A stretch of 62,259 nt of DNA from a virus. Its lineage: Duplodnaviria; Caudoviricetes. Shown one piece after another: positions 1,529-60,791 of this stretch. Position 1 is the stretch's first letter; each line of letters begins with the position of its first letter. The notes under the pieces were generated by a model. That model saw only the letters and a program-made list of their open reading frames with translations. It did not search any database and was not told where the DNA came from. A program made the position numbers and the translations under genes. The stretch lies in the IMG/VR virus record IMGVR_UViG_3300046003_005119, positions 1 to 62,259 of that record. One strand, written 5' to 3'.

Positions 1529-2157
1529 CATCCCTGACCATCATAACCGAATGGAGCAGGATGACCAGTTCCATGGACATCTGTGGGCGTGTTGCTTGCC
1601 GCGCCCTGCCCTACAGCACAAGCAGCGGCCCCATAGGGCAGGGCAGGCGCGGGGCTTGCGGGGCTTGCGGGTGCTAGGGTAGCGCCCAAGGCTTGCGCCC
1701 CTCCAGCGGCCTTCCCAGCGCTCCGGATTAGGGCATCCAACAGCTGAATCGCAAATTCAAGTTGCTCGCGTCGCTGCCAATCAGACAGAATGCAGCAGAA
1801 CTGGTATTCAAGATCGGGTAGGTTGTTCGCCTTCTTGAAGCGAGCGTTCAATTCGTCGATGTTTTCGGGAGCTTCGATGGACAGCGCGTAGACTGCATCG
1901 AAGTTGACGATCATCTTCTGAACGTAGGTTTTCGCCTTCAGCAAGTCCTGAAGGCCGTTCTTCTTCCACCAGCGCGAAACATACTTCGTCGCGCATCCCT
2001 CGAGATAGCCGAGGCCGACATCAATAGCCCAGTCCCAATGCTGATACTCAGCCTGATAGTGTTCTCCACCCTCTTGGGCAACGAACACTGACTTCCGACA
2101 CATGCACATATTCGTGTCGTGGCCACAGGTGTCACAGTTGGTGTTTCCCATGATCAA
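1528..2157 (-). CDS. DUF3310/SaV-like (T7 gp1.7-like) protein with Ala/Pro-rich tail
   Basis: GGEHY...GYLEGCATKYVSRWWKKNGLQDLLKAKTY signature. Confidence 0.75.
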   Translation of the reverse strand: MIMGNTNCDTCGHDTNMCMCRKSVFVAQEGGEHYQAEYQHWDWAIDVGLGYLEGCATKYVSRWWKKNGLQDLLKAKTYVQKMIVNFDAVYALSIEAPENIDELNARFKKANNLPDLEYQFCCILSDWQRREQLEFAIQLLDALIRSAGKAAGGAQALGATLAPASPASPAPALPYGAAACAVGQGAASNTPTDVHGTGHPAPFGYDGQG

Positions 2158-2702: not shown

Positions 2703-3671
2703 TCACTTGATCCTCCGGATGATATATTCACGACAGGCTTTCTGCCAGTCAGTTGCGGCGCATTCTCCAATGGCTTTGAGAGCCATCTCGTGATCCTTGG
2801 CTTTGTGCCAGTTCCACGCTCGAAGCATCGGCAGCGCCACTCGCTTGAAGAACTTGTCGCGATAGCCGATGACTTCTCCATGCTGAACAAACATCTCGAG
2901 ATCTGCCATCCAGTCCTCGATCGGACCGTTCACCATCGGATACGGCGAAACTTCGCCGCTTTCGTATTCAGCTGAAGCAATCGGAAGAGACAAGAGACTG
3001 GAGTGCTTCTCGAAGGTCGACATATATGCGTGGAAGTTTGTTGAGATCTGTTCATAGATGCCGACCTCAACACCGATCCACGCCGCGACGACTTCCTGCA
3101 TCATCGAGAAGTGAACAGCGTTCGCACCGTATGCACCCCAGATCATGTCGTTGGAACGGTTGAAGACATACATGTCCAGCCGACCGTCGACGATACGGAA
3201 GTTCACCATCTGGTTGCAAGGAAAGTCCTTGCCTTCACGACCGAGATCAGAAGCAGGGTCCCACATTCCCATCGATACACGACGGTCATCCGGGTTCTCC
3301 TTCAGAAGCATGGCACAAGTCGCCAACTGATCGACACCGAACCACTCGCGCCAGCGATGACCGTAGGCTCCATGGAAGGTGACACCATCATCGCTGTAGT
3401 TCGCGATCGATCCGTTGAATCGACTGATCCACTCAACATCGTTGCGACCAGCAATCATCCAGAGGCCTTCCATAAAGTGGAAGAACGGATTTGCATCCCT
3501 TTCAGGGAAGAACATCACTCGCTCTTTGGGCTTCTTGTAGACTGTAGTCACAGGAGTCCTGAACACCCTGACAGGACCGTTGCGGCTGTCGCGAAGAATG
3601 CCTTCGTCACGAACAGTGTGAAGCCCAAGGAGAAGGGCTTCAGAGACGTTGCGGACAGTGATCACTCTCAT
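2703..3671 (-). CDS. Thymidylate synthase-fold enzyme, probable dUMP hydroxymethylase
   Basis: GAYGHRWR, PDDRR, catalytic PC (DFPCN), RSND..WG...N with Asn at the dUMP-specificity position, NFHAY; neighbours are modification genes. Confidence 0.85.
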   Translation of the reverse strand: MRVITVRNVSEALLLGLHTVRDEGILRDSRNGPVRVFRTPVTTVYKKPKERVMFFPERDANPFFHFMEGLWMIAGRNDVEWISRFNGSIANYSDDGVTFHGAYGHRWREWFGVDQLATCAMLLKENPDDRRVSMGMWDPASDLGREGKDFPCNQMVNFRIVDGRLDMYVFNRSNDMIWGAYGANAVHFSMMQEVVAAWIGVEVGIYEQISTNFHAYMSTFEKHSSLLSLPIASAEYESGEVSPYPMVNGPIEDWMADLEMFVQHGEVIGYRDKFFKRVALPMLRAWNWHKAKDHEMALKAIGECAATDWQKACREYIIRRIK

Positions 3672-5012: not shown

Positions 5013-5201
5013 CTACTTATCTCTGCTTGCACTACTTTTGATTGCGAAGATAAGCATGATTAAAGGTGTGAAGCCTGAGAATAGGAACATAAAGAACGCT
5101 ACACTCAGGCTCAGATGTTTCTTCTTGATATCATACCAGAAGAGACTCAGCATGAACCACATTGACCACCAGACAATGAGCCAGAAGAGCCAGTTAGGCA
5201 T
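5013..5201 (-). CDS. Small two-TM membrane protein
   Basis: MPNWLFWLIVWWSMWF...; start moved to ATG 5201 to avoid a long overlap. Confidence 0.55.
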   Translation of the reverse strand: MPNWLFWLIVWWSMWFMLSLFWYDIKKKHLSLSVAFFMFLFSGFTPLIMLIFAIKSSASRDK

Positions 5202-6084
5202 GATACTTACTTCTGGGTTTCCCCTGACCAAGACGAACTCGTTCATACTTATCGAACTCGCAGAACGCGAATTGGATATCAGTGGGAACAAGTCTCCCGT
5301 CGTGAGTCCACAGCATCTCTTGCCATTCGCCGATCTTCCGAATTATGTCCATGGATCGTTGTTCAGTGAGAGGAGTTGCAGAGTCATCGCCCAAGAGACG
5401 AGCAGCACCACGACGAGCTCCAGGACCGATAGGAGTCCAGCTATCCCAGTCGACGGGATAAGAGAACGTCCCGTCCTTGGAATGCTCGAACGTCTCGTTC
5501 CAGAAACCAGTGTAGGTCGTGTCGAGCAGAACTTCCTTGGTCATGAAACCAGTTCCACCGAAGCCGCCGATCATACGCATCCGATCAGAGACTTCTTCCC
5601 AGCTTTGGGTCTCTTCAGCAATCTTCACGAGTTGCGGTGTCTTCGCGTGAAGATCCTTGAGAAAGTAGTCGACAACCACTTCCTGCTTCGGAGCGGAGAT
5701 ACCTTGGTTTGTGATGACATATGCTCCGGTAAACACTCGTTCGCGCGAAGCCAGACGTGATTCTGCCAAGTCCTTAATGCCATCAAAGTCGAACGTGTCA
5801 TACTGTTGCCATCCGATCGCTTGTGCAAATTCCCAAGTGCCGAAGTATCTGTATAGCGCACAGTTCATGAGGATGGTGCGCTTGTCATCGTTGAAGTTCG
5901 GCCCATAGAAGAGCCGACGAAGCTGATCGCTCGTGCGATCGTGATGTCTCCTCACGTTTGTGAATTTGTAAGTCCGTAGGATCTCGTCATCAGTCCACGG
6001 AAATGAAAAACCCGCCTCCTTCCGGAGGCGGATCTCTTCGCGTTCGTTGAGATAATCGTAGAACGCTTGCGCCCTGAGGCCCAT
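5194..6084 (-). CDS. aGPT-Pplase1 family (5-hmdU DNA kinase helical-domain-like) protein
   Basis: ERE.IR.RKE.G..FPWTDDEILRTYKFTNVRR..DR, FTGAY, GPGARRG, CEFDKYER...G.G.PR motifs of the family. Confidence 0.8.
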   Translation of the reverse strand: MGLRAQAFYDYLNEREEIRLRKEAGFSFPWTDDEILRTYKFTNVRRHHDRTSDQLRRLFYGPNFNDDKRTILMNCALYRYFGTWEFAQAIGWQQYDTFDFDGIKDLAESRLASRERVFTGAYVITNQGISAPKQEVVVDYFLKDLHAKTPQLVKIAEETQSWEEVSDRMRMIGGFGGTGFMTKEVLLDTTYTGFWNETFEHSKDGTFSYPVDWDSWTPIGPGARRGAARLLGDDSATPLTEQRSMDIIRKIGEWQEMLWTHDGRLVPTDIQFAFCEFDKYERVRLGQGKPRSKYHA

Positions 6085-6872: not shown

Positions 6873-6894
6873 TGCCTCCAGTGCTAGAGCCTAT

Positions 6895-6923: not shown

Positions 6924-6951
6924 CCTTTATTTGTTCAAGACTGACAAATAA

Positions 6952-8793
6952 CTAGTCGGCGCAGGCTCCCGTCTTACGACCATTTTCATCCAAGGCGCAG
7001 GCTCCGCTAAACCCATCTTCTTCCTGCATCGCGACGACTTTCGCTTGCTCCTCGTCGCGAGCTTCGTTTCCATCGACAGCCTTGATCGGCTCATCGTAGT
7101 TTCCAGCGGGACGATAAGTCGTGCATCCCTTGGCTCCGTTCTCCCAAGCCATGCGATACAGATCCTTGAATTCGTCGAACTTGAAGTTCGCTGGAACGTT
7201 GCATGTTTTGGAAACGGCGCTGTCAACATGACGCTGAGCCGTGCAGAGAACTGCGACATGCTCAGCAGCAGTGATGCCGCCATTGGCAACTGTCCGACCG
7301 CGCGTATCGAGATAGGCCACGCCATAGTCAGGAATGATGACAGTCTTCATGCCATCTTTCATGATCACGTTGCGTTTCTGCTCATAGGCGATGACAGGTT
7401 CAATTCCGGACGAGACGTTGTCTGCATAGAGCGAAATCGTTCCGGTCGGAGCAACCGAAGTCAAGTGTGAGTTGCGGATGCCATACTTGCGAATGAGAGC
7501 GATGGTATCTTCTTCGAGACCTTGAACATATTTCGATTTGAGGTATGCTTCCTGATCATAGAGCGGAAAGCTTCCCTTTTCCTTGGCAAGGAGAGCAGAT
7601 GCCTGATAGCACTTGTTCGCGATGAACCCCATCAAGCGATCTTGGAATTCGATGAACTCGGCAGTCCCATAGGGCAGCCCGAGTGCCTCGAGAGCATTGG
7701 CGAGACCAGTCACCCCGAGACCCATTCTCCTCTTCCTTTGGGCTTCCAGCTTCTGCTGAGGCAACGGATAACGGCTCCGATCGATGACGTTGTCCATAGC
7801 ACGAACGACCGGAGGGATATCCTTCGCGAGCAAGTCCCAGTCGAACGACCATTTCCCGTCGGCACCCTTGACGAGATACTTCACCACGTTGAACGAGCCC
7901 AAGAGGCAGGCTCCGTAGGGAGGGAGAGGCTGTTCGCCGCACGGGTTCGTCGCCGCAATCGTCTCGCAGTAATAGAGATTGTTCATGCGATTGATCTGAT
8001 CGATGAACAGAACTCCAGGTTCTGCCCAGTCGTAGGTTCCACGCATGATCATGTCCCAGAGTGCCTGAGCATCAACTTCGCGATAGTTGCGGCCACCGAA
8101 CTTCAGCATGAACGGACGCCCAGTGGAGACGCACTCCATCAGTTCGTCGGTAATGGCGATCGACATGTTGAAACCGCGCAGCGGACGAAGGTGCCACGGA
8201 ATCGAAGCATCGACAACCTGTTTCGCTCGAATGAATTTCTCGATATCAGGATGGTCACAGCGAAGAACCATCATCTGAGCTCCACGGCGATTTCCGGCCG
8301 AGGCCGTTGCACGACACACCATGTCGAAAATGCTGGCGAATGCAAGAGGCCCATCTGTGACTGACTGAACGCCTTTGATCATGTCCCCAGAAGGGCGCAA
8401 CGTAGAGAAATCATAGCCGACGCCGCCACCTTGGCGCATGGTGATAGCGGCCAGCTTCGCCACGTCCATGATACTCTCAGAGTTGAAGTAGCCATTGCCA
8501 CGCTCGATCATGCGCTCTGCTTCTGTCGGTCCATCGGTGAAGCTGTCATGAATCGTCGGCATGACGAAGCAGTTGTAGAGCGTCACGTTCTTGAGCGATC
8601 CTGCTCCGGCCTGAACTCTTCCGGGAGGCATGAATCTTTGATCCATGGTGATCTCACGAAAGTGCATGTAGTGTTCGTGACTGTCCTGAAGAAATCCAGC
8701 GACTCGATTGGTAGCCTCCCTGTGGTTTTCATTTTCACCACGATATTTCTCTGCACCGATTGCATCACAATGAGGATTCTGAGGTCCAGACAT
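6952..8793 (-). CDS. nrdJ: Ribonucleotide reductase, class II (adenosylcobalamin-dependent)
   Basis: NCFV, GGGVGYDFS.LRP, RRGAQM, TNPCGEQPL, APTGTIS, SKTCN; no small subunit gene seen. Start at 8793 or 8814. Confidence 0.85.
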   Translation of the reverse strand: MSGPQNPHCDAIGAEKYRGENENHREATNRVAGFLQDSHEHYMHFREITMDQRFMPPGRVQAGAGSLKNVTLYNCFVMPTIHDSFTDGPTEAERMIERGNGYFNSESIMDVAKLAAITMRQGGGVGYDFSTLRPSGDMIKGVQSVTDGPLAFASIFDMVCRATASAGNRRGAQMMVLRCDHPDIEKFIRAKQVVDASIPWHLRPLRGFNMSIAITDELMECVSTGRPFMLKFGGRNYREVDAQALWDMIMRGTYDWAEPGVLFIDQINRMNNLYYCETIAATNPCGEQPLPPYGACLLGSFNVVKYLVKGADGKWSFDWDLLAKDIPPVVRAMDNVIDRSRYPLPQQKLEAQRKRRMGLGVTGLANALEALGLPYGTAEFIEFQDRLMGFIANKCYQASALLAKEKGSFPLYDQEAYLKSKYVQGLEEDTIALIRKYGIRNSHLTSVAPTGTISLYADNVSSGIEPVIAYEQKRNVIMKDGMKTVIIPDYGVAYLDTRGRTVANGGITAAEHVAVLCTAQRHVDSAVSKTCNVPANFKFDEFKDLYRMAWENGAKGCTTYRPAGNYDEPIKAVDGNEARDEEQAKVVAMQEEDGFSGACALDENGRKTGACAD

Positions 8794-8828
8794 TCGCTTC
8801 TTCTCCTGAAACATGATTCGTGTCCTAT

Positions 8829-10058
8829 CTACATTTTGACGACGGTAACTTCTTCCGCCGCTCTTGTGATCGCTGTATAGAGCCACCGCCATCTGTCTTT
8901 GCGGAAGCAGTAGGATTCGTCTAGGACACAGACTGTGTCCCACTGTGAGCCTTGGGATTTATGAACTGTGAGTCCATAACCGAAGTCGAATTCGTTGGCT
9001 TCACGTTTCTCATACCATCCGAGTTTGTCAGCAGTTCCGAGGAAGTGATGTTCATGAGCTGACACTTCAACCGAGACAATGCTGTCCTCAGGTTGAACTG
9101 ACATGAACACTTTTTGATCCATGACACCAGTCACATCGCTGACGTGGAAAATAGCACCGTTCAACAGACCGAGCTCACTGTTATTTCGCAGGCAGACCAA
9201 GCGATCACCTACGATCGGATATGGGTCGTCGATACCTTTCAGCCTGCGAATCTTGTCATTGGTCGCAAAGCGTGTGACGTTCTTGCCGACCAAGATCTGA
9301 TCGTAAGATAGCGTCTCCTCTGGGTCCATCTTCGTGCCTTTTTCGATGATACGACTGTTGCCGTATGAACCGATGTTCGGCATCTCTTGGTTGCGAACTT
9401 TGGTAGCCAGATGAATAATCGGACTCTCACCTGCTTGACGGTGAATTTCTGTCAGCATCACGTTTGGGCGAACGTTCTCTGTGAAATAGCCAGCGCCACC
9501 GACAGGAGGAAGCTGAGCAGGATCACCCAAGACGAGAACAGGAGTTCCAAACGAAAGAAGGTCTTCGCCCATCCGAGCATCAACCATGGAACACTCATCA
9601 ATGATGACGAGAGCAGCATCTTTGACAACGCTGTCCTCGTTCCGTATGAACATCGGTTGATCAGCGTTCTCCGCTTCTTCCTTGATGTCTTTACGGAGTT
9701 GTCGAACTTTCGGGTGCATTTCGATATCTTCAACACGAGCGTCGATTAGTTCTTTGAGAAGATTGTCGAGTTGCTCCTGCATGACTTTCAATCTCGCGCG
9801 AGACTTGTCTCGGCTATGATAAATCATTGAGTGGATTGTTGCCGCGTTGTCACATCCTTTTGTCTTAAGGACGTGAGCAGCTTTTCCAGTATACGCTCCG
9901 AACAGAACTTCACCATCGATATTCTGTGCGAGATACTGAGCGAGTGTGGTCTTTCCTGTTCCTGCATACCCAAAGAAGTGGAATACCTGCTGATCACCAT
10001 TACGGAACCAGTCGTCTGCCATCAGAAGGGCTGCATCCTGTTGAGGTGAGAATTGCAT
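8829..10058 (-). CDS. RecD/Dda-like SF1B helicase
   Basis: GYAGTGKT, IIDECSMV, GDPAQLPPV, TVHKSQGSQW, YTAITRA. Confidence 0.9.
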   Translation of the reverse strand: MQFSPQQDAALLMADDWFRNGDQQVFHFFGYAGTGKTTLAQYLAQNIDGEVLFGAYTGKAAHVLKTKGCDNAATIHSMIYHSRDKSRARLKVMQEQLDNLLKELIDARVEDIEMHPKVRQLRKDIKEEAENADQPMFIRNEDSVVKDAALVIIDECSMVDARMGEDLLSFGTPVLVLGDPAQLPPVGGAGYFTENVRPNVMLTEIHRQAGESPIIHLATKVRNQEMPNIGSYGNSRIIEKGTKMDPEETLSYDQILVGKNVTRFATNDKIRRLKGIDDPYPIVGDRLVCLRNNSELGLLNGAIFHVSDVTGVMDQKVFMSVQPEDSIVSVEVSAHEHHFLGTADKLGWYEKREANEFDFGYGLTVHKSQGSQWDTVCVLDESYCFRKDRWRWLYTAITRAAEEVTVVKM

Positions 10059-11064: not shown

Positions 11065-11141
11065 TGGCGATCCTGGGAGGAATCGAACCCCCGACCCGCC
11101 GCTTAGAAGGCGGCTGCTCTATCCGGCTGAGCTACAGAATC
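11065..11141 (-). tRNA. trnR-UCU: tRNA-Arg(UCU)
   Basis: GATTCTG/CAGGATC acceptor stem, TAGCTCAG..GGATAGAGC D arm, anticodon loop CT-TCT-AA, GGTTCGATTCC T arm, encoded CCA. Confidence 0.95.
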
Positions 11142-17844: not shown

Positions 17845-20358
17845 TCAATACTGAACTCGGGCGACTAGCCCAGAGATGCTCGGAGTTACGTTATTCGTTT
17901 CGCTTTGAAGTTCGATCTTGAACTTGAACGCTCGACCATAGAAGTCTCCAGCCTTGAATATCTGCCAAGCAGACCAAGTCGGAGTTCCAGCTGGATCTTG
18001 TTCAGTGACGCTGATGTAGGTGATGACATCAGTGTCAGTGAACTGCGCGGCTCCAGTCCAATCGTCCCAGTTTCCTGGAAATGAATCCCAGTTTCCTGGA
18101 ATATCATCCCACAGACCAGCGGCTGTGTCGAGACGAACTACGTTCATGTCGATTCTGGATCTAACTCTTCTGACCGCTCCAGTGTCGATATAGGTCGTGA
18201 ATTCATACTCACCAGTTGAAGGCCCAGAGGAGAATGTCGTCAACCTGAGTTGGCTGGAAGTGACCGACGTATTAGTCTTCGTTCCAGAGAACGTCGGAGA
18301 CTGAGTAGAGGTCAGGTTGTTCGAGAACGTTTCGAGCGCTGCTTCACGAACGACAACCGACGAATAGTTGATCGAAGCGTTTCCAAGTTTGTCATACGCC
18401 TTGATCGTATACGTTCCAGGTCTAGTCGGGACAGTGACCGAACTCGCTGGGCGACTTACTCTCGTCACAGAACCAGTCGAGTTCGCGTATGTGGCACCAG
18501 TCTCTTCAAGAGAGTGACGAATTCTGTAGTGCGATAGATCCAGATCTGAAACAGGATCCCACTCTAGAGAGATCACTCCACCATTCAAGTTCGCTCTGAA
18601 ATTCGAGACATCTTCGGGTGCAGCGATGAGACCGACACTTGCGTAATCGAGATAATACGTCCAGTCACCTTGAACTCCAAAGTGATTGAACGATCTGGCC
18701 CTGAAGTCGTGATCCACGCTATCAGGATTCGGCAATTCATAGATACCGACGTCACCGGTTCCAGCGACTGACCACACAGAATCTGTCGATTTCTTATACT
18801 GAACTTCAACATAATCGATCATACTGGAATCGCTCGCAGTGATCAAGATATAGATGAAGTCAATGATGTTTTCGTTCTGGATTCGCACTTCGCTGCTGAG
18901 CGAAATTCCAACTGGCTCCACATAATACGGATTCGGCAGAGTCGTGTTGTTCATCTCGAACACAGAGCCAGAGACGTCTTGAAACACCTGCTCGGAGATC
19001 TCTCTCAGTGTCAACGGAAACTGAATATCAAGTTCTTCAGTGACGGACATGTTCCACGAGGTGACCTCGAAAGCCTTGGACACCCAACCGAAGCGATCAA
19101 GCGAGAGGCTGATGATATCTCCAACCTGAACCTTCATAGCTTTGAGACCGAAACTCGCAGAGATTGACAGTTGCTCTCTGTTTCTGAAAAGAGCGATCTT
19201 GGCAATTCTCTGTGCAGTCTTCGAGGAATCTGTGAACGGAAGATCATAGTCTGTAGTATTCTCGAGACCATTGTCAGCAGCTAGAAACGCCGCGTCCGTC
19301 ACTCTTGGGTAATCAGTATCCTGCCAATCAGTCTCAGGACCCTTGAAAGTTCCCTTGATGACGTTGAAGTTATCACGCCTGGAATTGCGTGTGGAGATTG
19401 AGAGCTGAGATCTTACATCTCCCTCATCGAATGAAATAGCCGGAGCGACCCACTTGGCAGCTTTCATTCTCCACTTGCCTTGTGAATACCATAGAATTCC
19501 ACCCATGGAAGTCAGCAGGCTCGATAGGATAGACCCAGGAGCGACTGAAGTCAGAAAGGATCCAGAGCAGGTATAGCGGCTTTCAGCAGACACAGTCTCA
19601 TCAGCCACATCAGCAGCGATTGTGACAAGAGCATCATCAATTCGAACAGAAGCTTGTGACAGACCGAAAGGTGCGGTGAGATAATCTCTGATGCAGAGAG
19701 CCGAGTTGTTACTCCACGCAGTCAGACCACTTCTTGGGTCATAGACCTTGCGTCCCTTGATTTTCGCGGAGACAGTCGGAACTCCGTTGGCGAAAGCATT
19801 CTGATCATAAGTGAACCGCGCGTAGACATACGCAATTCCTCTCAACCTATGGTTCGCTGTCCAGAATGCTGACTCAGAAGTGAGATCTGTGTCAGCAGTT
19901 TGTGAGTCAGTCCCAAGATAGGTCTTGATCCGAACTTTACCAGAGTATCTCGCTGGAGAGGTCACGTTTCCAGAACCATCTAGAGTGACTATCTCTTCAT
20001 TGAGATAGATCGCTGTGTAGGAGTCGATCTCATGTCCAGCAAAGCCGATCACTCTGTGAAGAATCTTGTTGTTCGTTCCAGTGCTTTCATCATAGATACG
20101 AACCCCGCCAACTCTCGTTTCACCATAGATGATTTGATGATCAAGACTTGATCCTGATACTCCGCTGATGGTGTATCCACCAGTTGAGTTTGACGGTTTC
20201 GGAGAGAGTGCGTTCAGAGCCGCACCCATAGCAGTCGAAACTAGGAAGTGCGTCAGGAGAGTTCCTGCACCTCCGACGAGAAATCCACCAAGAAGAACTC
20301 CACCCGAGAGCGCGGTTGTTCCTGCAGAAATCGCTCCCATGACTGCTGAAATTGCCAT
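17845..20358 (-). CDS. Tail tip/central fibre protein (J-like, with Fn3-like domains)
   Basis: IIYGETRVGG, HRLRGIAY, KGRKVYDPR, ALCIRDYL. Confidence 0.85.
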   Translation of the reverse strand: MAISAVMGAISAGTTALSGGVLLGGFLVGGAGTLLTHFLVSTAMGAALNALSPKPSNSTGGYTISGVSGSSLDHQIIYGETRVGGVRIYDESTGTNNKILHRVIGFAGHEIDSYTAIYLNEEIVTLDGSGNVTSPARYSGKVRIKTYLGTDSQTADTDLTSESAFWTANHRLRGIAYVYARFTYDQNAFANGVPTVSAKIKGRKVYDPRSGLTAWSNNSALCIRDYLTAPFGLSQASVRIDDALVTIAADVADETVSAESRYTCSGSFLTSVAPGSILSSLLTSMGGILWYSQGKWRMKAAKWVAPAISFDEGDVRSQLSISTRNSRRDNFNVIKGTFKGPETDWQDTDYPRVTDAAFLAADNGLENTTDYDLPFTDSSKTAQRIAKIALFRNREQLSISASFGLKAMKVQVGDIISLSLDRFGWVSKAFEVTSWNMSVTEELDIQFPLTLREISEQVFQDVSGSVFEMNNTTLPNPYYVEPVGISLSSEVRIQNENIIDFIYILITASDSSMIDYVEVQYKKSTDSVWSVAGTGDVGIYELPNPDSVDHDFRARSFNHFGVQGDWTYYLDYASVGLIAAPEDVSNFRANLNGGVISLEWDPVSDLDLSHYRIRHSLEETGATYANSTGSVTRVSRPASSVTVPTRPGTYTIKAYDKLGNASINYSSVVVREAALETFSNNLTSTQSPTFSGTKTNTSVTSSQLRLTTFSSGPSTGEYEFTTYIDTGAVRRVRSRIDMNVVRLDTAAGLWDDIPGNWDSFPGNWDDWTGAAQFTDTDVITYISVTEQDPAGTPTWSAWQIFKAGDFYGRAFKFKIELQSETNNVTPSISGLVARVQY

Positions 20359-21360: not shown

Positions 21361-21986
21361 AGAGCCTCCATGCACTCGAAAGTGATTCCATAGATGCTCA
21401 TGCTGTTGATATCCCACTGGGTTAGCGGATCTTTGAGACGGAACTTTCCGACACACCCGCTGACGATGACTGCGTCGTTATCAGCAGGAGAAGATCTCAA
21501 GGTCGGCCAGATATCAAGAGTCACCTGACCAGTTCCATCGGAGTTCGCATCAACGAGAACCTTGTGCAGCTTCGAACCTGAGCCAGTCCCAAGTTGAATA
21601 TAGTCACCAGCCTTCAGATATCCAGTCGCTGAGAGAGGAGCACCATCGATGATGAGGCTGCTCCCAGTTTGAGATGCACCTTTCACCAACGGAGTTCCAG
21701 GAGCAGTTGAAGCCGAACCCTGAGGAGTTGCACAGTTGGGATCAGAAAGCAAGAATGTTCCGACCCTTCCGTTGAGACTCAGAAGGAATGAGATCCAAGG
21801 CTCAGCCTTGTTTCTCAAAAACGGAGAGATCTTGACCGTTGCCTCCCACCTCTTTCCAGGATGAGACACAACCTGCTGGTTGAATCCATACGGAGACATA
21901 CTGAGCGCGTCAGCATTGACAGCCCGCAACGAGATTTCCTCAATCGCGTAGCCAGTAGGGAGAGACAGAGGGTATGAGATTGTCAT
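21357..21986 (-). CDS. Distal tail protein
   Basis: Directly after the tape measure gene; MTISYPLSLP...SPY...QQV...G.RWEA. Confidence 0.7.
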   Translation of the reverse strand: MTISYPLSLPTGYAIEEISLRAVNADALSMSPYGFNQQVVSHPGKRWEATVKISPFLRNKAEPWISFLLSLNGRVGTFLLSDPNCATPQGSASTAPGTPLVKGASQTGSSLIIDGAPLSATGYLKAGDYIQLGTGSGSKLHKVLVDANSDGTGQVTLDIWPTLRSSPADNDAVIVSGCVGKFRLKDPLTQWDINSMSIYGITFECMEAL

Positions 21987-24900
21987 TATCCACCAAACGC
22001 ATTCTTCATCTGTCCACCTCTTCTGCGAGCGTCGATGATTGCGCTCTTGGTCTTATCAACGATAGCCGGAACAGCTTTCATGATCTCAGAACGAATTGCA
22101 GTTACGTCGACGCCAGACCCACTGACATGAATGTCATTGTTCACGATGATAGTGTCGCCACCAGACCCAGAGGCCTGAACTCCAAGCTTCCCGTTCGCAC
22201 CTCTAGTGAGAGGCATGATCGCCTCTGGGCCAGCTTCACCCATGATGCCGAGGCCAGTGTTGGTCTTGAACATAGTCGCTCCGGAAACGACGCCACCATT
22301 GGCGAACTTCCGCAGCTGAGAACCTTGGCTCCAGACACCACCATCAGCTTGTTTAGTGAACGCCCCAGAAATAAGACCAATGAGACCAGTTCCAGTTCCA
22401 GTGGAGGCGTTGAAAGAACCAACCAGCCTCTGCACAACGAGAACTCGATAAAGTTCCTTGATGATCTCGTAAGCCATCTTCTTGAAAGCTTCTCCCATCG
22501 TCTGAGTTCCCTCGACGATTGACATGAAGGCTTCTTCCATGGAAGATTTGATTTTGTCAGAAATCGATTGCATCTGAGCGATTGCTTCTTTCTTCGCGTT
22601 CAGAGCCTCAATCTCCTTAGTGACATTATCGATCTCCAGCTGAGAGTATTTATCACGATCAGCACTCAGTGCAGTCTCAACCTGTCTTTGGGCTTCAGAC
22701 AACCCAAGGAGACGAGTTTCAAGCGCAATCTGTTCGCGGAGTTTCGCGAGAGCATCTTCGGATGCACCACCTCCACCACCTGCTCCATCAGGAAGAAGTG
22801 AATCCTGAAAGTCCTTGAGATCCTTCGCGTCCTTAGCCTTGTTGAAGAGAGCCAGGAAGCCCTCTTTAGCTTTCGCGACGAAGCCACTGTTCGCAAATCT
22901 GCTGAGAGCATTTGAAATGCCAGTTGTGATTCCTCGCAGAGCGCCGAAGGAAGAACTCAAGACAGCCAGTAGCTCTCTTGCTTTATCGATTGCAGGCTGA
23001 ATCATAGCAGCCAACATCTTGATCTTTCCTCCAAGAGTGTCAGTCGCTCCGCCAGCAGCAGCGATGACTCTCTCTAGAGCCTGAACTCTGGACAGCTGGA
23101 TAACCATCTGATCAGAAACGCTTTCAGCGATCTTGAGACTTTTGATAGTCGTCAAGAGATTTTCCATCTCAGTTCTTTGTCTCTGCTTCAGGACCTCGAT
23201 TGAATTTTCTCCGTATATTACAGACAGCCTGAGGATCTCAGCTTTCTCTCTCATCGGAGTGAGAATTTCCATCGCCTTCTGGTATTCAGCATCACTTTCA
23301 GCACGAGTTTGTCCCATGAGCTGAAGTTGCTGTCCCCACGTTCCGACCATGAACTGTCTCAGCTCACGCATTCTGAACATCTGTTCATTCTGACGGATCA
23401 GTTCTTGGACAATCATCTTTTCTTGGTTCAGGGCGAGCTGAGCTTTCATCGCGAGATCTGTGGCAGAAGCTTGAAGGCTCACTATCTCAGATTCAGTCGA
23501 TCCAGACCCAAGACCAGAGGAAGGATCGAACGTATAAGGATTCGCAGCCGCGGACTCTACATTCGCCTGTGCGACGTCTCTGATCGATGCCGCCAGAGCT
23601 CTGTTCTCTGCCGAGAGAGCTTTTGCCGTAGAGAGAGCCTTTGCTCCTCCTCCTGAGGCATACTCAGCCATCGAATCGTTCAGTTGCTCTTGGACTGATT
23701 TCAATTCCTCAGTTGCATCAGTCTGCAAAGACATGTAGAGCTGAACCGCAAGAAGACCAGTCAGAAGAATTCCGATAGGATTCGCCATGATCGTAGCGAA
23801 CAGAGCCATGAATGCGCCACGAACAGCACCAATAGCGACAGCAACTCCAGGAAGGACAGCGCGGAGCCGGACGAACCACCCTAGCGCCGCTGCCTGTGCA
23901 GCCGCTAGGCGCGTGGTTGCAACGGCAAGCCCCGTAGCCTGCGCCGTAGCCTGTGCAGCCGCTAGGCGCGCAGCCTGTGCGGCCTGCGCGCCAAATGCAG
24001 CCTGTGCAGCCCGTGCAGCCGCTAGGCGCGCAGCCTGTGCTGTCTCAACACCCTCAACAATGGAAAGTTTCTGAGAAAGATTGATCAAATTCTGCTTCGC
24101 GATCGCAAGGTTCACGAATTGACCAGTCTGAGCGTTTCTGGCAACGCCATTTCTGATCACATACTGTGACTCGAGAACTTGCTGCTGCAAGAGCAGTTTC
24201 TTCTGGGCGATGAGAGCAAGATTCTGCTGAAGTTCAGCCTGACGACTCGCGTATGCTGCGAGAGTTGTTCTGGTCTCTATGTTAGCTGCGGTTACGACAG
24301 CAGCAGATTTTGCGACGACCGCTGTCCGTATAGCGATCAGCCTCTGCAGAACTTCAGTCTGCTTTATTTGGGCAGCTTTCAATCCTGCAACGTAAGCCAT
24401 GACAGCGTGAATAGCTTTTCCTGCGAATACACCAGCCAGAGTCACGCCGACAGCAGTCGCGGTGACCATGATTCCTTTCAGGTTATCAGCGATACTGATG
24501 ATCGCCATAGAAACCTTTTCAGAGAAACCGGTTGCATCATCGAATGCGTCCAGGAGGGCCAAGAAGGAATCTCGAACAATACCAAGAGACTGGCCAATCG
24601 TCGGAACGAGTTTCGCGAAGTCCTTATCAATTCCAGCGGCAGAGTTTCTGAAAGCTGCGAGGATTTGATCAGCCGTGATCTTTCCTTCAGTTCCAAGCTG
24701 ACGGAGTTCACCACGGGTCACACCGAATTGCTTCGCGATGATGTCCGCAACCAGAGGAAGCTGTTCCAGAATTGAACGAAGTTCATCGCCGCCCAAGCGG
24801 TTTGACGAGATACCTTGCCCAAGCTGAATGAGCGCAGCGTTCGCTTCTCGAGCGTTCGCACCAGATAGAACAGCAGCCTTGCTCACAGACTCAGTAAATC

Positions 24901-25267
24901 TAAGCAACTCTTTCTGCGAGACACCGAGTTCTCTTGCAGACAGAGCCGTTCTGTTATAGATCTCGTTCACGCCTTCGAACGAGGTTCTTGATTTCTTTGC
25001 GATCTCAAACAACTGAGTCTGAACATCTTGCAGGTTCGATGCAGAGATCGTGGTCAGCTTCAACCTGTTTTCATAGTTCGTAAGCAAATCGAGCTGACTG
25101 GTCAACCCTCTCAGCAGACCAGCGCCACCGATGACGAACAACGCACGCTCAAGAAGAAAGATGCTTCGAGTTGCCCTGTTCGCGGCCATGCCAAGTTCGT
25201 CAAGATTTCTCTTGATGACATTCGTTCCGTTTTCACGGAAGATGATATTGACGTGTTCAGTTCCCAT
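21986..25267 (-). CDS. Tape measure protein (1093 aa)
   Basis: QLGQG.....L.GDELRSILEQ tape-measure domain; FANGGVV...MGEAGPEAIMPL C-terminus. Confidence 0.95.
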   Translation of the reverse strand: MGTEHVNIIFRENGTNVIKRNLDELGMAANRATRSIFLLERALFVIGGAGLLRGLTSQLDLLTNYENRLKLTTISASNLQDVQTQLFEIAKKSRTSFEGVNEIYNRTALSARELGVSQKELLRFTESVSKAAVLSGANAREANAALIQLGQGISSNRLGGDELRSILEQLPLVADIIAKQFGVTRGELRQLGTEGKITADQILAAFRNSAAGIDKDFAKLVPTIGQSLGIVRDSFLALLDAFDDATGFSEKVSMAIISIADNLKGIMVTATAVGVTLAGVFAGKAIHAVMAYVAGLKAAQIKQTEVLQRLIAIRTAVVAKSAAVVTAANIETRTTLAAYASRQAELQQNLALIAQKKLLLQQQVLESQYVIRNGVARNAQTGQFVNLAIAKQNLINLSQKLSIVEGVETAQAARLAAARAAQAAFGAQAAQAARLAAAQATAQATGLAVATTRLAAAQAAALGWFVRLRAVLPGVAVAIGAVRGAFMALFATIMANPIGILLTGLLAVQLYMSLQTDATEELKSVQEQLNDSMAEYASGGGAKALSTAKALSAENRALAASIRDVAQANVESAAANPYTFDPSSGLGSGSTESEIVSLQASATDLAMKAQLALNQEKMIVQELIRQNEQMFRMRELRQFMVGTWGQQLQLMGQTRAESDAEYQKAMEILTPMREKAEILRLSVIYGENSIEVLKQRQRTEMENLLTTIKSLKIAESVSDQMVIQLSRVQALERVIAAAGGATDTLGGKIKMLAAMIQPAIDKARELLAVLSSSFGALRGITTGISNALSRFANSGFVAKAKEGFLALFNKAKDAKDLKDFQDSLLPDGAGGGGGASEDALAKLREQIALETRLLGLSEAQRQVETALSADRDKYSQLEIDNVTKEIEALNAKKEAIAQMQSISDKIKSSMEEAFMSIVEGTQTMGEAFKKMAYEIIKELYRVLVVQRLVGSFNASTGTGTGLIGLISGAFTKQADGGVWSQGSQLRKFANGGVVSGATMFKTNTGLGIMGEAGPEAIMPLTRGANGKLGVQASGSGGDTIIVNNDIHVSGSGVDVTAIRSEIMKAVPAIVDKTKSAIIDARRRGGQMKNAFGG

Positions 25268-25752
25268 TACTCACCTTCTTCATCTTGACTTCTGGTGAAG
25301 ACACGAAAGTTCTGAATCACATCATGAACTTCTGACAAAGCGATCTCGATAAATCCAGCTGGAGCCTGACTGGAATATCCGCTATTCAATCTTTCGATGT
25401 AAGGAGCGTTGTTCGCGATATAGACAGCTTTCTTCAGACCGCCTCCTCGCCCAGAGACGCCGCGAACAGTTTCGATTTTCGCAAATCCAGCAGCGATCGC
25501 GGCGTTGGCGTTTCCGCGCTCGCCGAGTCCGAGTTTCTTTCCAGGAGCGTAGGCTTTGATGAATGCAGTCGGAGCAGCACCAACACCAACTCTCCAGTTG
25601 GAACGAGCAACACCTTCATCAACAGGAGTCGCGTAGACGAGAGCCTTCAGCGCTCGCTTAGAAGTCGCTCTCACAACGCGAGTGGCGGCATTCTCGATCT
25701 GAGAACTTTTCTTGAAGATGTTCTGAGAGAACTGAGCGAGAGTTGCCATCAC
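25267..25752 (-). CDS. Neck/tail completion protein (HK97 gp10-like)
   Basis: TPVDEG.ARSNW...N.APYIERLN.GYS.QAPAGF. Confidence 0.75.
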   Translation of the reverse strand: MMATLAQFSQNIFKKSSQIENAATRVVRATSKRALKALVYATPVDEGVARSNWRVGVGAAPTAFIKAYAPGKKLGLGERGNANAAIAAGFAKIETVRGVSGRGGGLKKAVYIANNAPYIERLNSGYSSQAPAGFIEIALSEVHDVIQNFRVFTRSQDEEGE

Positions 25753-26024
25753 TTTTTCTTCTGTGAGAGGTTCAGATAAACACCGTCCATCGCTTTGATA
25801 TGATGGTGCATAGCCTCAGTCTGCTCTTCGTCCAGTTTCTTTCTATCACAGTAGTCTTGGATTGTTCCCCACCATATAGGGCTGACACCCATCCCGACGT
25901 TCCGTGAGTTGATTAGATCCGTGAACCCTATGTAGTATAGTTCAAGGCCGGGAAGAAGACTAGGGGCATTTTGAATTTTCTCAGGAAGAGGCAGGCCGTG
26001 TTTCGCGGCCTGCTCGATGATCAT
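25749..26024 (-). CDS. Tail assembly chaperone extension (gpT-like, reached by -1 frameshift)
   Basis: Frame stays open up to the GGGAAAC site at 26072-26078. Confidence 0.75.
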   Translation of the reverse strand: MIIEQAAKHGLPLPEKIQNAPSLLPGLELYYIGFTDLINSRNVGMGVSPIWWGTIQDYCDRKKLDEEQTEAMHHHIKAMDGVYLNLSQKKK

Positions 26025-35366: not shown

Positions 35367-36905
35367 TCAATAATGTCCAGAAGTTGAGCCAGTTCCGCCC
35401 ATATTCGAGATATGACGAACGAAATATCTCGTTTCGTCAGCGATGTGATCTTCGGCATCCGTGTTCACGTCGTCCTGATCTTTCTCATCTCTGGGCAAAA
35501 CTGGCACCGTTTCGATGAATGACAGACATTCGTCGAAGATGAACATTCCAGGCTGTTCACGAGGATACATGAGAAGGACATCCTCTTTAGTCGGATGTTT
35601 TCTCATCGTCGGATGAGCATTTTTCAGCCTCTGACGCATCTGGTTCCAGCCTGTCACACGCGATCCAGGACGTTTATCAGCCGGAGCCCACTGAATTCCA
35701 GGATACTTGTTTCCATCATCCAATCTGACTTTGACTTTCATGTCTGTCGCGATGCAGTTGCCGTTCTCAGCGGCGAAAATCTGCGAGTCAGCGACTCCGC
35801 CCTTCACTCGACACCAGTCTTCACCTGGAATTCTCCAGTTCCACGCCAGCTCTTTCTCGACAATTCCAGCCGCGATGTCAGTCGCGAGCATTCGGAGACC
35901 CTCGTTGGGCTTTCCTGTCGAGCCATACCATTCTTTCACACGGAAAGAGTCTCCCTTGATCGTCGAGCGCCATGATCCATCACGAAGCTGAACGTCTTCT
36001 CCATTCGAAATGGCCCACCAGCCCACAGAGAAAGGCTTCGATTCTCCCCAGTCGAAGGAGCGGATGATACGCCAATTCAACGGTATCTCAAAGTTTGAGA
36101 TTACATTAAATCGAGGTTCCCATACATCGTCGAACATACCGCCAGCGACGATGTCCCATGACCCTTCGAGCCATGCTTTCTTCTCCGCCGCGTTTCTCGC
36201 TGACGCTGCAATCTTCTGTTTGTATTCAGGATCGGCCTCGAGCAGAGCCGTGTTCTCGTCGATATGCGAGTGGATGCTCAGGCGAGGAGGCTCGGAGTTC
36301 CCTTCTTCATCTTTCAGATCGCGACGGACGATCATGTTCATGCTGTTGGGCTTGAACCTGTGTTTCACCCAGTTGTGACCGGGACCATATGGGTTCGTCG
36401 TCGCGCGAACCATACGAGGCATTCCCTTTGTCGACGAACGACAACACGAGAACATCCTCTTGTAGCCCTCATCATTCGCCCAGTTGCACAACTCTTCCCA
36501 ACCAATCCAGGGATATTCGTGACCGTGATAGTTCCAATAGTCGTCAGCTTTCATGAACTGGCGAAGCAGAAGCTGTTCTCCTCCAGGAAACGTCCAGACA
36601 TGCTCGGAGTTGTTGAATTTCGCTTCCGGCCAGATCTGAGGGATCCACTTTTTCGTTTTCGAGATAATATCCGTCAATTGTTTATACGTTTGACGGAATA
36701 GAATTCCCTTCCAGCCAGCCCCGTATCCCTTTCCGACGTGCATACAGAAGCTCATAATCAATGAGTCTGTCTTGCCGCCTCCGCGAGTTCCTTCGAACAA
36801 GACTTCGAAGATTGGGTGAGCTGCGAGGAAGGCCTCTTGGCTTCCTCGCATGGGTCGCCAAATCACGTTCTTGGGGAATTGCATACTCATTTCAGCACAT
36901 ACCAT
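35367..36905 (-). CDS. terL: Terminase large subunit
   Basis: GTRGGGKT, WEEL, TTNPYGPGH.WVK, RSFDWG, EDHIADE.RY. Start probably 36887 or 36881. Confidence 0.95.
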   Translation of the reverse strand: MVCAEMSMQFPKNVIWRPMRGSQEAFLAAHPIFEVLFEGTRGGGKTDSLIMSFCMHVGKGYGAGWKGILFRQTYKQLTDIISKTKKWIPQIWPEAKFNNSEHVWTFPGGEQLLLRQFMKADDYWNYHGHEYPWIGWEELCNWANDEGYKRMFSCCRSSTKGMPRMVRATTNPYGPGHNWVKHRFKPNSMNMIVRRDLKDEEGNSEPPRLSIHSHIDENTALLEADPEYKQKIAASARNAAEKKAWLEGSWDIVAGGMFDDVWEPRFNVISNFEIPLNWRIIRSFDWGESKPFSVGWWAISNGEDVQLRDGSWRSTIKGDSFRVKEWYGSTGKPNEGLRMLATDIAAGIVEKELAWNWRIPGEDWCRVKGGVADSQIFAAENGNCIATDMKVKVRLDDGNKYPGIQWAPADKRPGSRVTGWNQMRQRLKNAHPTMRKHPTKEDVLLMYPREQPGMFIFDECLSFIETVPVLPRDEKDQDDVNTDAEDHIADETRYFVRHISNMGGTGSTSGHY

Positions 36906-37246: not shown

Positions 37247-37572
37247 GATATCTGCAACCTCGCTTGAAGGACTGTGATCTCATGTCTCGTGAGATTACAC
37301 CCGCGTTCGATTCGATAGGTGCTCAGCCTCAGACCACGAATTTGTTCGAGCCATCCCGATTCCGTTTCTATGAAGCGGAATCGCGTTCCATCTTTGAACC
37401 GACCTCGGCGCGTTCCTAACTGCAGATCGGAGAATTCGTCTTGATTACGAATTCTCCAATCCACTATTCCTCCTACAGGAATCACGATCAGAAGATCATA
37501 CATATATTCTACCTCCGGTCGGAGCCGACACACATAGTGTCTATATGAACCCAGAAGGACACGCGGGCGCAC
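37243..37572 (-). CDS. Hypothetical protein
   Basis: ORF coupled to the downstream gene; start uncertain. Confidence 0.45.
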   Translation of the reverse strand: MRPRVLLGSYRHYVCRLRPEVEYMYDLLIVIPVGGIVDWRIRNQDEFSDLQLGTRRGRFKDGTRFRFIETESGWLEQIRGLRLSTYRIERGCNLTRHEITVLQARLQIS

Positions 37573-37752
37573 CGTGGATCACGAAAATTCAGTTACACTC
37601 ATTCTCGCTGCTCACGCAAGTGCAGCTTCTCATGAGTCTCGTGAGGCTCGTCGATTCGTTTCGAATTTTGGTTTCTTGTTTCTCGGTTCTTGATCTTCGT
37701 AGGATTTCGAATGATGTGGGTGAAGGGGCGGGGAACGGGACCGCCAGCCATA

Positions 37753-37820
37753 CGCCCCACGCGCAAGCCGTGCGTGGGGCGGGGTGGTAGCGGTTGCCTG
37801 CCCCGCAACGGGGGCAGGCG
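37753..37820 (-). terminator. Two GC-rich hairpins downstream of the Ala-rich gene
   Basis: CGCCCCACGC/GCGTGGGGCG and GCCTGCCCC/GGGGCAGGC stems. Confidence 0.55.
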
Positions 37821-37832
37821 GTTGCTTTGGCG

Positions 37833-38315
37833 CTATGCCTTGGCAGGCGCAGGCGCGGGCGCGGCAGCGGTTGCCACAGGCGCGGCAGCGGCAGCGGCAG
37901 CGGTTGCCACAGGCACAAGCCAAGCCTGCGCGGCGGCCCATTGCGGCATGTTGTGGCGCTGCCAGCCCCCATTTGGCGGGGCAAGCGTGGGGCTTGCGGC
38001 TGCACTGGCCACCAGCGCGGCGCGGTATTGCGCCAAGGTAAAGCCGTTGGGCTGCACCTTGGCAAGCGCCTGTGCCACTTGGCAGGCAAAAGCGCGGTGG
38101 CCACGCTGCCCCACAGGCCAGCCAGCGCTTGCGGCTGCACTGTAGGGCATATAGGTGTAAAGTGCCGCGCCAATGGCCACAGCAACGGGCGCGGCGGTTG
38201 CGGTTGCAACGGGCGCGGCGGGCGCGGGCGCGGTTGCGGTTGCGGTTGCAACGGGCGCGGGGGCAGTAGCCTTGCCAGCGGTTGCGGTTGCGGTGTTTTT
38301 GTTAGCTTGTGCCAT
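37833..38315 (-). CDS. Ala/Thr/Pro-rich protein with no Asp or Glu (160 aa)
   Basis: Preceded by the AGGCTACCA leader and a promoter, followed by hairpins; lies wholly inside the GA/TC-free island. Confidence 0.7.
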   Translation of the reverse strand: MAQANKNTATATAGKATAPAPVATATATAPAPAAPVATATAAPVAVAIGAALYTYMPYSAAASAGWPVGQRGHRAFACQVAQALAKVQPNGFTLAQYRAALVASAAASPTLAPPNGGWQRHNMPQWAAAQAWLVPVATAAAAAAAPVATAAAPAPAPAKA

Positions 38316-38369
38316 TGTGGTAGCCTTTGGTTACAGGGTAGCAGCACCATTGCCGCTATGCCCTGCCCC

Positions 38370-38399
38370 TATATAGCGCCATAGCGCGGCAAAAGCCAA
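38370..38399 (-). promoter_or_regulatory. Promoter of the Ala-rich gene
   Basis: TTGGCT-N18-TATATA. Confidence 0.5.
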
Positions 38400-38524
38400 G
38401 TAACATGTTGTTACAGATTGTAACAATTTGTTACCGGAAATGCAGTAACGTTTTGTTGCAGGCTGTAACAATTTGTTACCGGAAATGCAGTAACGTTTTG
38501 TTACAGCCTGTAACAATTTGTTAC
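38400..38524. repeat. Array of six GTAAC-N5-GTTAC palindromes (45-bp tandem period)
   Basis: Boxes start at 38400, 38420, 38445 (one mismatch), 38465, 38490, 38510. Confidence 0.9.
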
Positions 38525-60341: not shown

Positions 60342-60791
60342 TTAGTTTTCTAGAAAGTTCACAGAAACTTCAGCTTCAGAGAACATGTCCGCGGCTGTGA
60401 TCATTCCAGGCCAGCGAGTAATCATATCTGGAGCGACTTTGTGAGTGAACACCTGAGTGATTCCGGCATGAATGATCTGCGCCGCACATCTCTCGCAAGG
60501 ATGGTGCGTCACATACATCACAGCGTTCTTGAAGTTCGACGAATCGAAGTTCGACAAGGCATGTTGCTCTGCATGGATCACTCTTGGGTATTTCCATTCG
60601 CGATTCTTCAGCATCTCGATCGTGTGAGGAATACGATCAGGAACATGGTTGTATCCCCACGACACAATCTTTCCTTCTGAGGCGATCACGGCACCGACTT
60701 TTGTCGATGGATCATGACTCATCGATGAGTGCGCCCAAGCAATACGCATGAGCATGAGATGATGTTCACACATGCTGGTGACTCCCGTCAT
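60342..60791 (-). CDS. dCMP deaminase
   Basis: S.DPSTKVGAVI, GYN, HAEQ, PCERC. Confidence 0.9.
   Translation of the reverse strand: MTGVTSMCEHHLMLMRIAWAHSSMSHDPSTKVGAVIASEGKIVSWGYNHVPDRIPHTIEMLKNREWKYPRVIHAEQHALSNFDSSNFKNAVMYVTHHPCERCAAQIIHAGITQVFTHKVAPDMITRWPGMITAADMFSEAEVSVNFLEN

Follow-up and report, generated by a model that had tools for sequence, protein, structure and literature searches.

A conserved GA/TC-free island in the tape measure gene of a phage predicted to hypermodify its thymidine

Why should a tape measure gene that carries a GA or TC dinucleotide once every 5–6 bases also contain a stretch of 170 base pairs (bp) in which neither occurs on either strand? The question is raised by IMG/VR record IMGVR_UViG_3300046003_005119, a sequence of 62,259 bp that represents a whole phage genome (CheckV completeness estimate 98%; the record ends are cut inside the DNA polymerase gene). 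This entire sequence is the window analysed here and is referred to below as G000; the GA/TC-free stretch at positions 23874–24043 is termed the island (Table 1). The answer favoured in this work, with moderate confidence, is that the island is a selectively maintained gap in a thymidine hypermodification that the phage directs at TC.

Extent of the island and tests against chance

The limits of the island are sharp. The preceding GA ends at 23874, the next TC begins at 24043, and neither dinucleotide occurs in between, as compared with 574 occurrences in the remaining 3,112 bp of the gene (density 0.184), where no other free stretch exceeds 21 bp. A reading made from the sequence alone, without database searches, had singled out exactly this stretch in a gene otherwise full of GA and TC, and its description holds to the base. 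GA and TC are in fact the most over-used steps in the genome, at 1.47 and 1.37 times their expected frequency, respectively. Only three GA/TC-free runs in G000 are outliers, with lengths of 677, 170 and 122 bp; the fourth longest is 58 bp, against an expected maximum of ∼ 53 bp. No comparable outlier run was present in the genome for any of the remaining nine dinucleotide classes. The island is also rich in guanine plus cytosine (G+C), the genome as a whole being 52% G+C.

The same sequence-only reading had described the stretch as repeat-built and its peptide as free of acidic residues, and this too is correct. The 16-mer GCAGCCGCTAGGCGCG is found in three exact copies in the island, where 0.04 would be expected, and each copy lies within a longer repeat of 22–33 nucleotides (nt). 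The encoded peptide, residues 409–465, comprises 29 Ala in 57 residues (51%) and contains neither Asp nor Glu.

Peptide composition was taken into account by holding the peptide fixed, drawing synonymous codons and calculating the probability (P) of obtaining no GA or TC. With the codon usage of 34 minus-strand genes this value was 2.6e-7, and with a gene set from both strands it was 7.2e-7, these sets having been drawn from a crude longest-open-reading-frame caller. The tape measure gene's own usage gave 1.2e-8, uniform codons gave 7e-5, and counting repeated DNA only once gave 9e-5. Moreover, when the codons of 66 genes were resampled 300 times with every peptide preserved, the longest run found anywhere was 90 bp, and not one of the 300 resampled genomes reached 170 bp. 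It had been proposed that the idea of a DNA-level signal would fall if codon shuffling of the same peptide often gave zero GA/TC, so that Ala-richness alone explained the run. Because the probabilities are small with the peptide fixed (at most 9e-5) and no resampled genome attains the run, that explanation fails, and the run exceeds both chance and Ala-richness. The codon choice within the island is, moreover, foreign to the genome: CTA encodes four of the five Leu residues (6% genome-wide), TTT is used over TTC, and GGG encodes two of the three Gly residues.

Table 1. Coordinates in G000 of the islands, of the tape measure gene and its segments, and of genes bearing on DNA modification.
Feature	Position	Strand	Remarks
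GA/TC-free island	23874..24043	.	170 bp, 71% G+C; in tape measure gene, residues 409–465
Three exact 16-mer copies	23898–23913, 23955–23970, 24015–24030	+	within longer 22–33-nt repeats
Tape measure protein gene	21986..25267	-	1093 amino acids (aa); Pfam TMP_3, residues 55–244
SIVEGVE conserved peptide motif	24044..24064	-	N-terminal bound of the island in G000, G003 and G001 (alignment)
18 codons in G000 only	23948..24001	-	duplication in island; gap in five aligned relatives; coordinates from alignment
Hydrophobic segment, residues 466–515	23723..23872	-	positions invariant in six relatives; follows island
Largest GA/TC-free island	37740..38416	.	677 bp, 68% G+C
ORF160, conserved phage protein without Asp/Glu	37833..38315	-	160 aa; wholly in 677-bp island, with GA/TC-free flanks of 93 and 101 bp
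Third GA/TC-free island	1581..1702	.	122 bp, 72% G+C; low-complexity C-terminal tail of DUF3310 protein
DUF3310 protein gene	1528–2157	-	
5-Hydroxymethyldeoxyuridine (5-hmdU) DNA kinase homologue	5194..6084	-	assigned by Pfam HMUDK_hel, 1.8e-36
Thymidylate synthase homologue, candidate deoxyuridine monophosphate (dUMP) hydroxymethylase	2703..3671	-	Thymidylat_synt, 4.3e-20; searches cannot separate hydroxymethylase from methylase
Deoxycytidine monophosphate (dCMP) deaminase homologue	60342..60791	-	putative dUMP supply; 5.9e-20
Transfer RNA (tRNA)-Arg(TCT)	11065..11141	-	only tRNA gene; reads AGA, a codon with GA that serves for 22% of Arg

Conservation of the island and its protein setting

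The open reading frame (ORF) that contains the island carries a match to TMP_3 (E = 6.4e-55; 186 bits against a curated cut-off of 41) and is therefore assigned as a tape measure protein. Its surroundings are those of a tail module, in that the protein is long, a hydrophobic segment is conserved after the island and tail genes are nearby. Two small ORFs lie upstream (25267–25752 and 25749–26024), and a Phage-tail_3 protein is encoded downstream (17845–20358). A megablast search of the gene against 50,697 phage records gave no match, tblastn with the protein found distant relatives only (34% cover; those matches are annotated as tape measure proteins), and a single-protein scan of IMG/VR returned one weak locus; alignment-based scans later gave more. 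A profile scan of IMG/VR yielded 63 tape measure loci, of which the 41 whose match reaches the island region were analysed, and a metagenome scan yielded 39, of which 25 were analysed. In addition, five IMG/VR records (G001–G005) were reached via the gene in the largest island, ORF160, and taken whole. Their tape measure proteins are 45–61% identical to that of G000 over the first ∼ 500 residues. The G000 large terminase is 55–57% identical to those of YuA-type phages.

In an alignment of the six genomes, the sequence that starts directly behind SIVEGVE and stops directly ahead of the hydrophobic segment is free of GA and TC in three, over 170 bp in G000, 139 bp in G003 and 124 bp in G001. In G004, G005 and G002 the homologous 135 bp are Ala-rich yet contain 12–15 GA/TC, including Glu codons. 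As an Ala-rich segment occupies this site in all six genomes, the purge of GA and TC is a trait of one sub-clade. Judged from the alignment, the island is a homologous Ala-rich segment that has been recoded and extended by the 18-codon duplication. It is no insertion, a possibility that the sequence-only reading had put up for checking. That reading's suggestion of a length-tolerant protein is borne out by the duplication and by an independent assembly, contig X3, a length variant in which 79 letters replace 100 within the island. The island segment appears to lie, on this comparison, where the protein tolerates changes of both composition and length.

The wider scans are consistent with a recurrent trait. 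GA/TC-free runs of at least 85 bp at codons ∼ 397–443 were found in four of the 41 IMG/VR loci (L042, which is G003; L043; L044, which is G001; and L059), and runs of 60–74 bp at the island site in three (L058, L067 and L069). Among the metagenome loci, 11 of the 25 carry runs of 85–128 bp at this site (L131, L134–L139, L145, L149, L163 and L165), a count that includes repeats of one phage; over both scans, the runs of 85 bp or more fall at codons ∼ 398–450. Across 12 lineages, with the peptide fixed and codon usage taken from the gene itself, the probability of a GA/TC-free run ranges from 1.4e-3 to 4e-10, although the relatives share kinship and the per-lineage values are not fully independent. 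The island peptides of these lineages differ widely. Identical residues have the same codon in a fraction of only 0.27–0.39 inside the island, not above the flanks, and the longest repeats in the relatives' islands are 10–16 nt, none of them long. Since TC is absent from the islands, Ser, where present, is not specified by a TCN codon. The conserved trait is, as read from these comparisons, the absence of a dinucleotide step and not a sequence. Taken with the codon resampling and the absence of any 170-bp run in 300 resampled genomes, the per-lineage probabilities support the earlier proposal of a signal at the level of DNA as opposed to a by-product of the peptide.

Three metagenome loci, L131–L133, reside on a single contig of 197,896 bp as tape measure matches of equal score and identity spaced 64.8 kb apart; the contig looks like one phage genome's concatemer, assembled three times over.

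The island region was also recovered on contigs from the sequencing runs of three other studies. Contig X2 is identical to G000 over 23795–23999, X4 covers 23783–24399 with 15 substitutions and no insertion or deletion, and X3 is the length variant described above; bins that these contigs leave uncovered count as no evidence.

The tape measure protein of G000 is a chimera. Identity to the relatives is 51–61% in the N-terminal part, and from residue 530 to the end it is 16–18% to all of them; at the DNA level, similarity between G000 and G003 ends at 23926, inside the island. The tail-tip module, which takes in the C-terminal half of the tape measure protein (21986–23700) and continues to ∼ 16375, likewise shows no relationship to its counterpart in the closest relatives (16–18% identity); this looks like a module swap, one end of which falls close to the island. 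As a rule, the length of the tail follows that of the tape measure protein, and tape measure proteins with internal repeats are known; the G000 protein resembles them as a TMP_3 tail-module protein with an internal duplication and a length variant, but the notable feature here is one of DNA and not of protein. No match to reverse transcriptase (PF00078) was found in the genome, which speaks against the target of a diversity-generating retroelement.

Predicted modification context and possible use of the gap

The enzymes listed in Table 1 would place G000 among the phages that hypermodify through 5-hmdU. It shares the enzyme logic of a thymidylate synthase homologue plus a 5-hmdU DNA kinase with the hypermodifiers M6 of Pseudomonas, ViI of Salmonella, PhiW-14 of Delftia and SH-Ab 15599 of Acinetobacter, and the kinase is encoded in four of the five relatives (G001–G004), the fifth record being a 59% fragment. 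In the accessible sections of the published work, modification derived from 5-hmdU is partial and tied to the dinucleotide TG and/or TC (PMC6449724, PMC13458397, PMC8989533, PMC5889632). Specifically, the conversion of 5-hmdU depends on sequence context (PMC8989533, PMC5889632), the restriction sites that resist cleavage implicate TG or TC (PMC6449724) and the adduct of phage SH-Ab 15599 is found mainly at TG (PMC13458397). The sequence rules of partial thymidine hypermodification were still called unknown in 2018 (PMC5889632); preferences for TG/TC come from later papers.

The context used by G000 was read out from 6-bp palindromes, which were split by dinucleotide content into ten classes in 16 genomes. 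In G000, palindromes that contain GA/TC occur at the expected frequency (observed/expected 1.00, n = 16), whereas those without GA/TC are avoided (0.50, n = 40; p = 1.5e-6). In this genome none of the ten classes but GA/TC reaches significance, and GA/TC is the single best class in nine of the 16 (G000, G001 and G003–G009); RDJL3, Simon, G002 and G010–G012 gave other or weak palindrome signals. Phage YuA (L004 plus L005, whole genome) served as a positive control. Here palindromes with CA/TG were protected (0.74 against 0.36, p = 3e-6) and those containing GA/TC strongly avoided (0.24), a result that agrees with the TG activity reported for the M6-type kinase (PMC6449724, in the part available). 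The same test thus reads TC alone in G000 and TG in YuA. Together, the kinase pathway, the restriction of palindrome avoidance to sites without GA/TC, and the published preference for TG or TC make GA/TC the very probable modification context; on sequence statistics and the literature on other phages, TC/GA is very probably the protected, modified step in G000.

A different chemistry at the same dinucleotide has been described in Pseudomonas phage iggy, in which dPreQ0 (a 7-deazaguanine) is placed at a strict GA motif, as stated in the accessible part of that report (PMC10484667). The iggy system needs the DpdA transglycosylase, however, and a search for the corresponding DpdA/TGT family (PF01702) found no match in the G000 genome, while the same search matched 14 of 14 control genomes. 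Modification of this type at GA was accordingly set aside.

The mechanism envisaged is as follows. Thymine would be replaced through the 5-hydroxymethyl-dU route, and the DNA kinase pathway would then hypermodify the T of 5′-TC-3′, which reads as GA on the opposite strand, so that the T of TC would be the modified base. In a few places codons and residues would be chosen so that TC/GA occurs on neither strand. Such an island is predicted to be unmodified because it offers no TC for the kinase pathway to decorate, and after replication it would remain ordinary, adduct-free, G+C-rich DNA, also in the virion. The absence of GA together with TC is strand-symmetric and therefore fits an effect at the level of double-stranded DNA. 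If this reading is correct, selection would both enrich the target step genome-wide and erase it from defined stretches, at a cost in residue and codon choice.

The gap would presumably have some use. Our best guess, held with low confidence, is that it gives access for a DNA transaction hindered by a bulky adduct, either strand exchange/recombination or protein binding. Strand exchange or another DNA transaction is preferred in the first place, with the chimeric tape measure and the similarity break at 23926 as a single case in point. The docking of a protein unable to read adduct-bearing DNA comes second, with no motif in support, and the absence of any present use ranks third.

Several observations weigh against the favoured account. 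The basis for TC as the modified context is indirect. A transferase for the pathway, the enzyme that would replace the phosphate (aGPT-Pplase or amino-acid:DNA transferase), was not apparent: the ORFs at 6087–6872 and 3671–4954 match no Pfam or PHROG family, bar a sub-threshold match to Glycos_transf_1. The island contains palindromes that would be unprotected (GCGCGC three times and CTAG four times), a would-be cost. The tape measure island is not indispensable, being absent from G002, G004, G005, G006, G008 and G009, and G007 has no island at all despite its GA/TC signature (rho 1.41, p = 2e-5). None of the seven in-island substitutions in contig X4 creates GA or TC, which is weak evidence of constraint since 17–22% per change would be expected to do so (P ∼ 0.27, not significant). 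With respect to function, of 20 islands, 14 share the best 7-mer (null maximum 13) and 10 share the best 8-mer (null maximum 9); no motif is claimed, because much of the k-mer excess comes from homologous islands, that is, from common descent. There are no promoter-like sites in 23500–24400 or 37500–38700, and the RNA fold of the island is not special (z = -1.07). Extra synonymous conservation within the island was also looked for and not found. The sequence-only reading's picture of an unmodified landing pad finds no support in its second half, since neither a shared motif, a promoter-like site, a special fold nor extra synonymous conservation marks the island as a place of landing. Across the whole genome, Rfam recorded only the tRNA, at 11068–11141.

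Of the competing explanations, the one with most in its favour is that the island is a historical by-product of recombination or slippage, in which a GA/TC-free seed was amplified or converted in at a low-complexity, repeat-prone hinge for the exchange of tail modules, the state being inherited and of no present use. The exact 22–33-nt repeats and 18 extra codons of G000, the length variant X3 and the chimeric tape measure, with DNA similarity to G003 stopping at 23926 within the island, are what such a history would leave behind, and many relatives have their longest free run, though a short one (24–86 bp), at this same Ala-rich spot. It is nevertheless unlikely. Some 12 lineages with diverged peptides and no long repeats all have zero GA/TC, at probabilities of 1e-3 to 4e-10. 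The three islands of G000 have no mutual DNA similarity. Drift at the observed synonymous turnover would soon re-create the favoured GA/TC, no GA/TC-poor donor genome is seen among the loci (densities 0.112–0.186), and the chimeric junction is a single instance.

Very unlikely is a constraint on RNA, under which GA and UC would be barred from the transcript, for example because of a sequence-specific endoribonuclease or so that no Shine–Dalgarno-like GGAG sites arise. This explanation requires that two unrelated words be avoided where a single strand-symmetric DNA step accounts for both, and a patch of 170 nt in the middle of a 3.3-kb messenger RNA full of GA and UC would protect nothing. The 677-bp island does span one gene with untranslated flanks, in the manner of a transcription unit, and all of the islands are on the sense strand of transcribed genes; but there is no special fold, and the palindrome signature points to DNA.

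That composition alone is responsible, the island being a lucky extreme of an Ala/Gln/Arg/Leu-rich coil written in G+C-rich codons, is highly improbable. Relatives with a like peptide hold 12–15 GA/TC, P is at most 9e-5 even with the repeats collapsed, none of 300 resampled genomes reproduces the run, and the island's codons are abnormal (CTA for four of five Leu against 6%; TTT, not TTC). These results outweigh the fact that the peptide is 51% Ala without Asp or Glu, that the repeats lower the number of independent codons, and that the homologous segment of the non-island relatives has a GA/TC density of 0.089–0.111 against a gene average of 0.141–0.156.

An artefact of assembly or of base-calling at modified bases, conceivable in that the sequence is of metagenome origin and hypermodified phage DNA is described, in the available portion of one report, as hard to sequence (PMC4177049), can practically be dismissed, as the island is seen again on contigs of three other studies (X2 identically and X4 without an insertion or deletion), the reading frame is open, TC/GA is read normally in the rest of the genome and many relatives, assembled independently, show the same trait.

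A selectively maintained gap in TC-directed hypermodification accordingly remains the favoured reading, and it may be set beside better known systems. The accessible sections of the papers on M6, ViI, PhiW-14 and SH-Ab 15599 describe where modification is located; conserved target-free stretches are the feature of G000. No such islands were found for any dinucleotide in YuA, RDJL3 or Simon. Restriction-site avoidance in phages, which removes specific 4–8-bp sites genome-wide, is likewise selection on short DNA words and not on protein, and G000 also avoids palindromes without GA/TC (0.50). The difference is that G000 loses a 2-bp step, over-used genome-wide, entirely from a few local stretches. 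Vertebrate CpG islands keep their target dinucleotide and are protected from the modifying enzyme. As an analogy only, both they and the islands described here would be local escapes from a dinucleotide-directed modification, the G000 islands escaping by being without the target.

As to individual palindromes, GTAC does not occur in the genome, where 89 copies would be expected, and is likewise absent from G002, G003, G005 and G006. CTAG is halved, with 40 copies against 74 expected, four of the 40 being within the 170-bp island.

What is new is a conserved island without the target, in this case inside an essential gene; partial, context-specific thymidine hypermodification was already known. 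A full-text literature search, whose coverage excluded supplementary files, found no description of target-free islands. In addition, the splitting of palindrome avoidance by dinucleotide is a purely computational read-out of context, which yields TG for YuA and, as a prediction, TC for the G000 clade, and it may serve as a general predictor of modification context.

Other GA/TC-free islands and ORF160

The largest island contains the whole of ORF160 (Table 1). This ORF has 59 database relatives, the central domain being 68–87% identical in the closest 36, and the family is nearly free of Asp and Glu; on this conservation the ORF160 protein is taken to be real. The probability of finding no GA/TC given its peptide is 2e-19. 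An ORF160 homologue overlaps or abuts a run of at least 90 bp in nine of 12 IMG/VR loci, the exceptions being L013, L014 and L015. Among the whole records, the longest run contains or overlaps the homologue in G000, G001, G003, G004, G006, G008 and G009; in G002 a 90-bp run contains it, and in G005 no long run does. Searches for the identity of ORF160 gave no Pfam or PHROG family, no phage match by tblastn, a best E of 0.87 in a PDB profile search, and viral hypothetical proteins only, with scores ≤ 0.83, in a protein atlas search. Its AlphaFold2 model has a mean predicted local distance difference test score (pLDDT) of 58, and Foldseek returned nothing from the PDB at E ≤ 0.001. A candidate promoter spotted by eye upstream of ORF160 (TTGGCT-18-TATATA) did not qualify as one.

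Where the two gene blocks diverge, immediately upstream of ORF160, a 45-bp unit is present in 2.9 tandem copies (38399–38528; 91% matches), with GTTACA/TGTAAC inverted repeats and one GA per unit. The two terminase genes enclose the ORF160 island together with several small ORFs on the plus strand. A distance of 3.7 kb separates the large terminase gene (35367–36905) from the small one (40604–41293; YuA gp50 match, E = 2.6e-9), and the two adjoin in YuA.

The third island, in the tail of the DUF3310 protein, has a probability of no GA/TC given the peptide of 1.7e-6, and islands placed like it occur in G001–G004. Intergenic islands of 115–145 bp with shared ends are present in G001–G005. These short islands, from the DUF3310 tail and between genes, form a family with shared ends (for example, L038:6202–6317, L041:15675–15791 and L034:8728–8873); their 3′ end is near CCAACACGTCCACAG, and in some copies a ribosome-binding-like site comes after it. 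The consensus fold of the family is only -5.8 kcal/mol. A common origin of the three G000 islands was considered and rejected, as blastn-short gave only compositional matches of 10–21 nt.

The recurrence of islands invites a wider and tentative reading, which we consider possible though on balance doubtful. Siphophages of one clade, living in fresh water and the sea and hypermodifying their thymidine, might write a map of modification-free windows into their genomes by omitting TC/GA, with the tape measure segment as one conserved station. The ORF160 cassette and a few short stations would belong to the same map, and on a chromosome otherwise coated with adducts only these windows would be bare. 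As entry points they might be used in tail-module recombination, in the docking of a protein (possibly that of ORF160, which is basic), or for expression and survival under an attack on modified DNA. If true, this would amount to a sequence-encoded epigenetic pattern in a virus. The islands, at 85–700 bp, may in any case be of value as test objects for the limits of hypermodified DNA in recombination, protein binding, transcription and packaging.

Across all islands of G000–G005, G+C approximates the genome G+C plus the genome GA/TC fraction; in G000, for example, 0.52 + 0.18 = 0.69, compared with an observed island G+C of 0.68–0.72. The coincidence prompted the idea of a mutational origin (T of TC to C or G), which was rejected on account of its conflict with the genome-wide excess of TC/GA.

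In G011 (L123), a distant relative without the GA/TC palindrome signature, a stretch at ∼ 6800–9400 comprises 2.5 kb without an ORF of more than 150 aa, is 67% G+C and very rich in TAG/CTAG, and is poor in GA/TC (124 in 2,801 bp). Finally, the 8-mer GCTGGTGG, which we take to be the Escherichia coli Chi sequence, occurs six times in G000 (at 1966, 16323, 17282, 33142, 36015 and 38009), where ∼ 2 would be expected for an 8-mer, and all copies are on the minus (gene-sense) strand; the relatives contain 8–13 copies with the same one-strand bias.

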